From: Lama guanicoe
Taxonomy: Eukaryota
Reading direction: 5' to 3'
DNA: 64,000 bases
Assembly (NCBI GenBank): GCA_013239625.1
Contig: MU053588.1
Location: 2,118,508 to 2,182,507 of the forward strand
Shown: positions 21,101 to 22,955 of the stretch, piece after piece
How the letters are laid out: each line of letters starts with the position of its first letter
How positions within the stretch are numbered: the first letter of the stretch is position 1
The notes under the pieces: model-generated
Told to the model about the DNA's origin: nothing
The model's database searches: none
What the model saw: the letters and a program-made list of their open reading frames with translations, nothing else
Translations under genes and position numbers: made by a program

Positions 21101-22955
21101 GGCGGCCAGAAGGCTTATGTCCCGCCCCCACCCCCGCCTCATCTGTGGTGCCCTCTGCAGGCTGAAGGCCCTGGGGGAAGGAAGCAAACAGTGGTCATCG
21201 AGTGCCCCCAACCTGGGCAAATCCCCCAAACACACACCCATCGCCCCAGGCTTTGCCAGCCTCAATGAGATGGGTAAGAGGGTGAGGGCCCCTTTCAAAG
21301 GGAGAGGGAGGGGTGACCATTCCCCCAGGGTTGTGGGGAGAAAGCGGGATTTCACTGCGCCAGCCCGGAGGACGCATTCGTGGGCTCCAGACAGCCAGTC
21401 TCTGGGGGTCATTCCCAGGGCAGGAGGATTTGGGGGGAGAAAGATTCGAGAACCATGCTTAGTGGGACTTGGTGGTTTCGCTGTTGGAGGGGTCACTATG
21501 GGCAGCTCCGTGCCTCCAAGTCCCCGAGGGCTGAGGGGCCAGGGGCGAGCCCCGGAGCCCAGTGAGTCGAGTCCAGTGACAGCCCTTTCCCGGTTGCAGA
21601 GGAGTTCGCGGAGGCGGACGGAGGCGGCAGCGTGTCCCCCTCCCCCTACAGCACCCCGTCCTACCTCACGGTGCCGCTGCCCGCCCAGCCCTCCCCGGGG
21701 GCGCGGGCGCCATGGGAGCCCCCGCCGGCCGCCCGGCCTGGGCACGGCTCCCGGCGGCGCTGCGACGCGGGCACCGCCGGACGCCCTCGGACGGCGCGCT
21801 GGGGCAGCGGGGGGCGCCCGAGCCCACGGGCCCTGGCCCTGGTGAGTGAGGCTCCACGCGCCCAGGGCGCAGAAAAATGCCCATCTCCCCTGTCCCCGCC
21901 AAGGACTAGTGTCCTAGCCCAGCGATGACCCCTTGGATGCCGAGGCGGCCTCCTCCGGCTTAGCATGGGGAAGAAGGGTCTGGGTCCCCGTGGCCCCCAC
22001 TGTTTTGCGAGGCCTTGTGGGTCACCGGGTAATTGAGACACAGAATGCAGCAGAGGTGACAAATTCTAATGCCTACAAGGGCCAGGCAGGTGACATTAAT
22101 GGCAACAGTAATTACTAGCATTAACCCCCATGTGCCAGGCACTTTTCTCTGTACGTTTACTAACATGACAAAGATGATTAGAACAGAAAGGAGCTAAGTA
22201 CCTCCCATCAGGCACTGTGCTACTTGTTTTACTGTTACTGTTATTGTTTTATTTAATTCTCACCTATGTAGTGAGGTGCTGTCATCCCCAGTCACAGGTG
22301 GTGGCATGCCTAAGGTGTCTCTGTGGGTCTTTGTGAAGTTGGCCTAGTGGAGAAGAGGTGTGAGGGATGAGGGCTTTGTCTGGAGGGGCAACAAGGAAAT
22401 GGGCTCTGAAAGATTAAGGATTGTGCCCAGAGTTGCATCCAGATGGGTGAGCAATTAGGAGAGTCGGGGGGTGGCTAGGTAAAGGTCTAAACCCTGCTGG
22501 AAAGTGGGCCCAACAAAATCACCAGATCTTTTTCAAGAGAAGTCAGATTCCAGTTTTCATGTACATGCTCCTGGCTTTTAAATACCATCCTCTGGCCGAC
22601 CCTACTCACCTCATTTCATCCTCTCTTACCAGGCCCTCGGGATCCCCTGGACTTTCCCCGTCTGCCTGACCCCCAGGCCCTGTTCCCCACCCGTCGACGG
22701 CCCCCCGAGTTCCCTGGCCGCCCCACCACCCTGACCTTCGCCCCAAGACCCCGGCCAGCTGCCAACCGTCCCCGCCTGGACCCCTGGAAACTGGTCTCCT
22801 TCGGCCAGACACTCAGCATTTCGCCTCCCAGCAGGCCGGACACTCCCGAGAGCCCTGGGCCCCCCAGCATGCAGCCCACGCTGCTTGACATGGACATGGA
22901 GGGGCAGAGCCAGGACTGCACAGTGCCCCTGTGTGGGGCCCACGGCTCCCGTTGA
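8439..22955 (+). CDS. MAP3K10: MAP3K10 / MLK2 mixed-lineage kinase 2; 10 coding exons, exon 9 apparently internally deleted and frameshifted in this sequence
   Basis: Exons 8439-9120, 12674-12854, 15759-15907, 16364-16539, 17160-17406, 18951-19067, 20872-21049, 21161-21273, 21600-21841, 22633-22955, all GT-AG. Domains: SH3 ([22 protein letters not shown]), kinase ([24 protein letters not shown]), leucine zipper, CRIB-like [13 protein letters not shown]. Confidence 0.97.
9484..9692 (+). mobile_element. MER20 (hAT-Charlie)
   Basis: tctcaacctcagcactgttg...caaccaaaaatgtctcca...cccagttgagaaccac. Confidence 0.75.
11700..12080. mobile_element. MIR elements (two, opposite orientations)
   Basis: gtggcagagctgggattcaaacccaggcag; gctgtgtgatcttggccaagtgacttcatctctctgagccttagttt. 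Confidence 0.65.
12674..12854 (+). CDS. MAP3K10: MAP3K10 exon 2
   Basis: cag|TCCTCATC..ILILE..DFGLARE..APE..SDVW; donor gt at 12855; 181 bp. Confidence 0.96.
15759..15907 (+). CDS. MAP3K10: MAP3K10 exon 3
   Basis: cag|[22 protein letters not shown]...PEPFARLLE; donor gtgag; 149 bp. Confidence 0.96.
16364..16539 (+). CDS. MAP3K10: MAP3K10 exon 4
   Basis: [12 protein letters not shown]...LRTKEK; donor gtaac; 176 bp. Confidence 0.96.
17160..17406 (+). CDS. MAP3K10: MAP3K10 exon 5 (leucine zipper and basic region)
   Basis: [16 protein letters not shown]...HISLPS; donor gtacc; 247 bp. Confidence 0.95.
17893..17972. mobile_element. MADE2 mariner-derived MITE
   Basis: About 80 bp with inverted ends ttaggtcaaaccatgtgaaatt...tttcacatggaccaaccta. 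Confidence 0.75.
18117..18648. mobile_element. Charlie1/MER33-like hAT fragment
   Basis: cagcactggccaacagaaatataattcgagccacatg...ccatattgga termini. Confidence 0.7.
18660..18842. mobile_element. MER5A
   Basis: gttctcaaac...gcccaagaatctgcattt...gaccacacttggagaaccac. Confidence 0.7.
18951..19067 (+). CDS. MAP3K10: MAP3K10 exon 6 (CRIB second half)
   Basis: ccctttgcag|[23 protein letters not shown]...RLRAIR; donor gtgagt; 117 bp. Confidence 0.95.
20180..20640 (+). mobile_element. L2 3' end
   Basis: actagaatgtaa..cagggcaggga..tggcacaaagtaggtgctgtaaacatttgagaatgaatg; many other L2 and MIR pieces occur in introns. Confidence 0.65.
20872..21049 (+). CDS. MAP3K10: MAP3K10 exon 7 (G/S-rich)
   Basis: [17 protein letters not shown]...[16 protein letters not shown]; donor gtact; 178 bp. 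Confidence 0.93.
21161..21273 (+). CDS. MAP3K10: MAP3K10 exon 8
   Basis: [23 protein letters not shown]...LNEM; donor gtaag; 113 bp. Confidence 0.94.
21600..21841 (+). CDS. MAP3K10: MAP3K10 exon 9, shortened, with a frame switch at about 21766
   Basis: The 5' part reads [23 protein letters not shown]...RRRCD. The 3' part reads [16 protein letters not shown].. only in a different frame. 242 bp is not a multiple of 3 between two phase-1 junctions. Confidence 0.85.
22633..22955 (+). CDS. MAP3K10: MAP3K10 exon 10 coding part
   Basis: [18 protein letters not shown]...[27 protein letters not shown] at 22953-22955. Confidence 0.93.

Follow-up and report, generated by a model that had tools for sequence, protein, structure and literature searches.

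A frame-shifting exon 9 junction in the MAP3K10 gene of a Lama guanicoe assembly, probably of technical origin

MAP3K10 gene structure and the exon 9 junction

The analysed stretch of DNA, referred to here as the window, comprises 64,000 nt of the Lama guanicoe assembly GCA_013239625.1 (contig MU053588.1, positions 2,118,508 to 2,182,507 of the forward strand). It contains MAP3K10 (MLK2) on the plus strand, for which splice reconstruction yielded ten exons with AG/GT ends between 8439 and 22955, and a neighbouring minus-strand gene that we take to be TTC9B (stop 23510-23508). The two genes converge on 22956-23510, where minus-strand AATAAA motifs at 23071-23066 and 23104-23099 and a plus-strand ATTAAA motif at 23211-23216 suggest overlapping 3' UTRs. 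The MAP3K10 features used below are the following (window coordinates).

8439-9120, 12674-12854, 15759-15907, 16364-16539, 17160-17406, 18951-19067, 20872-21049 and 21161-21273, plus strand: exons 1-8, delimited by their splice ends
21600..21765, plus strand: 5' remnant of exon 9, in the original frame to Cys669; identity 48/55 to pig and 50/55 to takin
21757..21765, plus strand: 9 nt remaining from the 5' copy of a putative 11-nt direct repeat, deduced from dromedary record P0158; the 3' copy, absent from the window, would lie where the missing block ends
21765..21766, plus strand: junction; about 439 nt (146 codons + 1) absent, no N, frameshift
21766..21841, plus strand: 3' remnant of exon 9; 25 original-frame codons unchanged, read in a shifted frame in the literal mRNA
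21842..21851, plus strand: tandem donor, GTGAGT at 21842 and a second GT (GTGAGG) 4 nt further at 21846
22633..22955, plus strand: coding part of exon 10; original frame 22635-22952 open up to TGA 22953-22955
22732..22734, plus strand: TGA of the literal product, in exon 10, preceded by 59 new residues
23211..23216, plus strand: ATTAAA, seen in the sequence, a candidate poly(A) signal that fits exon 10 as the last exon

Exons 1-8 (8439..21273, plus strand) encode intact SH3 and kinase regions, and their residues are identical to those of the alpaca protein record P0001 (614/614). An N-terminal SH3 domain is followed by an MLK-type kinase domain, residues 1-360 being identical to P0001, where these domains are assigned to PF14604/PF00018 and PF07714; exon 1 matches the MAP3K10 SH3 structure PDB 2rf0 (E 5e-41), and MLK1 and MLK4 kinase structures are matched as well. 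Residues 361-520, presumably the leucine zipper and CRIB region, are intact in the window (160/160 identical to each of P0001, P0006 and P0033).

Exon 9 (21600-21841, plus strand) is 242 nt long and is entered in phase 1. Its TGC codon at 21761-63 (Cys669) is followed by GAC at 21764-66, and the conserved downstream motif begins at 21766 in another frame. The spacing between the motifs RRRC[DE] and RGHRR is 146-148 residues in seven of the eight orthologs examined, the eighth being without the first motif, and by this ortholog comparison the window lacks about 439 nt, a length not divisible by three. The literal splice product encodes 728 aa, and the full Pro/Ser-rich C-terminal region is not found in the window as written (146-148 residues absent, frame shifted). 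A preliminary description of this DNA had reported a 242-nt exon 9 lacking about 150 codons with a change of frame at 21766, and a literal protein of 728 aa that stops at TGA 22732-22734 in the last exon. The independent count of 146-148 absent codons and the reconstruction from splice ends reproduce both statements.

No N occurs anywhere in the window, and the join is closed. None of the 7-mers of the missing block was recovered from the six reading frames of the window (0/142 for pig, 0/46 for alpaca), and a relocation or inversion of the block inside the window was rejected because neither strand holds a block 7-mer. An exitron or a processed copy was also rejected, since the gene retains its nine introns and the number of missing nucleotides is not divisible by three. 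Four GT-AG pairs within the exon would restore the frame and were rejected by inspection (poor donors, no pyrimidine tract).

Two other transcripts are predicted to bring exon 10 back into frame in the window's version of the gene: skipping of exon 9, which gives 721 aa with the native C-terminus, and use of the second GT at 21846, which gives 803 aa. In a normal transcript, this second GT of the tandem donor (21842-21851) would put the reading out of frame.

The missing block in camelids and other mammals

Alpaca P0001 equals the window over residues 1-660 of the literal product, over the last 25 codons of exon 9 and over exon 10, which places the source of the DNA among camelids very close to alpaca. 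Between these parts it has the final 52 block residues (its residues 661-712) and is without nine residues that the window has. The gap of P0001 itself corresponds to pig residues 662-765, and that of the window to pig residues 672-819.

The dromedary record P0158 (Camelus dromedarius, 421 aa) runs on through intron 8, exon 9 and exon 10 in frames scrambled by frameshifts. Such scrambling is a sign of an indel-rich consensus in exon 9 of another camelid assembly. A frameshift-aware collinear alignment of P0158 with the hippo block extended over positions 13-145 of 146, found 123 residues compatible and switched frame five times; its score was 81, where 20 shuffles averaged 11 and reached at most 14. 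This collinear test replaced an earlier, order-blind dual-frame coverage test (140/146 against a shuffled mean of 66). Judged by the alignment, P0158 holds most of the block, error-rich and in scrambled frames. As block sequence is held by both the alpaca and the dromedary record, the deletion is not common to all camelids. All three camelid-derived sequences are damaged in exon 9, each differently. The preliminary description had pointed to sister records containing the segment as the mark of an artefact, and this expectation was borne out in part: P0001 and P0158 hold 52 residues and most of the block, respectively, but no clean full-length camelid MAP3K10 protein was found among the matches (one representative per 90% cluster).

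Beyond the camelids, 83 therian records were compared with pig P0003. Four of these do not span exon 9 and were set aside, 49 are intact, 27 have internal gaps in exon 9 and three skip the exon. Identity of the block to pig has a median of 90% in the 49 intact records, so the block is constrained. The 27 internal gaps have 27 different spans, none of which lies within 3 residues of both ends of the window's gap; examples are alpaca P0001, Suricata P0019 and Carlito P0059. The proportion of 27/83 should not be read as a frequency among species, since aberrant models fall into 90% clusters of their own. The damaged records resemble the window in the exon affected and in an overlapping missing region, whereas they are protein models and hence in frame, all their spans differ and their breakpoints are never those of the window. 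Many of these database gaps are probably gene models that bridge open gaps, unlike the closed join studied here.

In records P0011 (bat), P0020 (macaque) and P0071 (bat), the annotated isoform leaves out the whole of exon 9 without changing the frame. The pig-like Logan record P0002 makes a 136-codon in-frame jump inside exon 9 and is otherwise one residue off pig P0003; template switching or an exitron could account for this jump. Pattern scans for exon 9 DNA of camelids or artiodactyls in metagenome contigs gave 0 matches. In a sequencing-run index (24 rows, of which 12 are possible sources), 14 DNA rows contain 0.96-0.98 of the 241 words and none contains 0.99; an absent junction costs about three words, the same as one or two SNPs, and this result was counted neither way.

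Past the junction, the abandoned frame is undamaged. The last 25 codons of exon 9 match alpaca P0001 and takin P0006 at 25/25 residues and pig at 24/25, and the original frame of exon 10 matches P0001 at 106/106 and pig at 103/106 (97%), similar to the kinase region (353/360). The preliminary description had based its case for an assembly collapse on exon 10. The conservation of the original exon 10 frame holds, but the argument drawn from it is weaker than it appeared, as either exon 9 skipping (721 aa) or the +4 donor (803 aa) would suffice to maintain that frame. Judged on the aligned codons, the 25 post-junction codons, which are also unchanged in the old frame, are a stronger argument than exon 10. 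Neither skipping nor the +4 donor uses their frame, and the loss would therefore be very young or not real.

These observations bear directly on the possibility that the deletion is fixed in this camelid species or its lineage, selection on exon 10 being maintained by transcripts that skip exon 9 or use the +4 donor. Skipping of the whole exon is in frame and is annotated in 3/83 records, and the matches include no clean full-length camelid protein, both of which are compatible with such a deletion. Against this, dromedary and alpaca records hold block sequence, and the 25 post-junction codons are unchanged in a frame that neither rescue uses. A lineage-fixed truncation would be recognized by its occurrence in relatives together with decay of the abandoned frame, and this combination was not found. 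We consider a fixed deletion highly improbable.

Breakpoints and base composition

To describe the breakpoints, the nucleotides at both ends of the block were deduced by two-frame codon constraints on P0158, an error-rich record from another genus. At the 5' end, P0158 is compatible with Cys-Glu only (eight solutions for E, none for D), and the residue after RRRC is E in pig, hippo, takin and deer. At the 3' end, it reads Arg-Ala-Val-Ser, which in the +2 frame becomes Arg-Cys-Glu, with two possible solutions. RCE is thus spelled at both ends in different frames, and the deduced repeat agrees at 9/10 fixed positions and at one probable position (10/11). A clean jump from one repeat copy to the other, with 2 more bases removed, gives the sequence seen in the window. 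Both breakpoints thus appear to lie on a near-perfect 11-nt direct repeat, and we infer that the join is a repeat-mediated jump with a further loss of 2 nt. Among random pairs of 10-mers from the remnant, 11/24,753 match equally well, in a comparison that was chosen post hoc. A search of the surviving sequence for a repeat pair (21500-21950) returned five direct families and 20 inverted pairs, none of them exact across the join or able to account for it.

The Asp codon of the window is probably chimeric and made by the join, in which case the two sides need not share a C. The preliminary description had reported such a shared C at 21766. This is unsupported: it rests on the human D, while other artiodactyls have E and the dromedary sequence fits E, not D.

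The exon 9 remnant has a GC content of 82.6% (36 CpG), rising to 88% within 50 nt of the junction, and is among the five highest-GC of the 200-nt segments scanned; that of the missing block is estimated at about 78%. The GC-rich (~70-78%) coding region of exon 1 and TTC9B exon 1 read intact, and GC content alone is therefore an insufficient explanation.

Origin of the junction and neighbouring features

The sequenced animal very probably carries an ordinary full-length MAP3K10 of about 950 aa, the gap having arisen in sequencing or assembly. The feature thus exists in the sequence file, and the animal itself probably does not have it, a reading that draws on assembly and protein records. It is favoured because other camelid records hold a piece of the block and because the exon is broken at different places in many drafts. 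The preliminary description likewise preferred an assembly error in a GC-rich exon, a view strengthened here by P0001, P0158, the scattered gaps and the absence of decay. Reads spanning the block may have been few. The two near-identical 11-nt copies, which would lie some 440 nt from each other, could then have been joined through a polymerase template switch that gave a chimeric read, or through falsely overlapping reads; a thin consensus may have dropped 2 more nt, and the join would have passed into the assembly with no N to mark it.

That GC-rich regions of draft assemblies can falsely lose exons or acquire frameshifts is documented in the available part of Kim et al. 2022 (PMC9516821). 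As in the window, the cases described there concern a conserved GC-rich coding stretch that one assembly lacks or shows frameshifted and that related assemblies contain, and gene models compensate via false introns, as P0001 also appears to do. Those cases were proven with long-read assemblies and raw reads, whereas the case of the window rests on an assembly and on protein records; moreover, the frameshift class in the text available consists of indels <10 bp, in contrast to a closed jump of about 440 nt within an internal exon. For mouse Atoh7/Math5, the accessible portion of PMC2927423 describes an in-vitro template-switch deletion of a GC-rich coding segment in cDNA. There, too, the reaction jumps over an internal GC-rich segment and favours the short product, and the gene has imperfect direct repeats, although the Atoh7/Math5 product arose in reverse transcription and PCR of cDNA and the window sequence is genomic.

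The main alternative is a recent private or rare deletion allele that is real in the sequenced animal, formed by replication slippage or microhomology-mediated end joining between the 11-nt repeats. Its product would be a 728-aa kinase that keeps the SH3, kinase, zipper and CRIB domains, gains a 59-residue new tail and loses about 280 C-terminal residues. Since the stop lies in the last exon, the transcript would probably escape NMD, and minor in-frame forms could arise via exon 9 skipping (721 aa) or the +4 donor (803 aa). Such an allele agrees with a join that is closed without N and with the putative 10/11 direct repeat at both ends, from which the join is 2 nt short of clean; a very young allele is also expected to be without downstream decay. 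Real deletions favour GC-rich, microhomology-flanked sites, and 29% of pathogenic deletions of at least 30 bp have flanking microhomology, according to the available text of PMC9069542. The deletions reported in that text share with the window GC-rich breakpoints and, given the putative repeat, short flanking homology, but they were validated in patients, whereas the junction of the window is known from assembly sequence alone. The repeat does not discriminate between an artefact and a real deletion. According to the portion of PMC8746764 at hand, mice deficient in Mlk2 and Mlk3 were reared to P21, indicating that the loss is tolerated.

What weighs against a private allele is the setting of the gap. 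Alpaca and 26 other records have different exon 9 gaps, and two unrelated real deletions are less likely than one common technical cause. None of the 83 therian records has the window's breakpoints, no protein covers the frameshifted part or the shifted tail among the 46 matches (best coverage 78%), and the block is well conserved. A private allele is therefore considered unlikely. The same low expectation applies to its most far-reaching form, a living South American camelid with a natural repeat-mediated exon 9 deletion that would produce an NMD-escaping 728-aa MLK2 without the native tail, partially rescued by the +4 donor.

If the junction is an artefact, as we prefer, MAP3K10 exon 9 would be a recurrent failure point in mammalian assemblies. 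Screens for gene loss should then mask it, bearing in mind that a closed join at a short repeat can look like a true allele. A real junction would mean that a kinase activating JNK and p38 is naturally truncated at its C-terminus, and carriers would test the role of the C-terminal third of MLK2 in vivo. The MLK2 tail presumably binds clathrin and carries JNK feedback sites. The tolerance of Mlk2 loss in mice, as given in the available part of PMC8746764, suggests that a real truncation would have a mild effect. No literature on a GC-rich assembly loss of MAP3K10 or on a camelid MAP3K10 deletion was found in titles and abstract starts, most subscription journals being outside this scope, and nothing usable was found on the function of the MLK2 tail, including in the accessible text of PMC3271974.

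Elsewhere in the window, an exact 21-nt tandem duplication lies at 24866-24907 in the first TTC9B intron. A trinucleotide run of about 23 units lies within 54131-54535, in an intron of a gene that we assume to be AKT2-like, and its minus strand reads poly-Ala or poly-Leu. AT-rich, A-skewed stretches occupy 1-6000 and 57500-61000, the latter with a reading at 58827-59195 that is presumably LINE-1-like.
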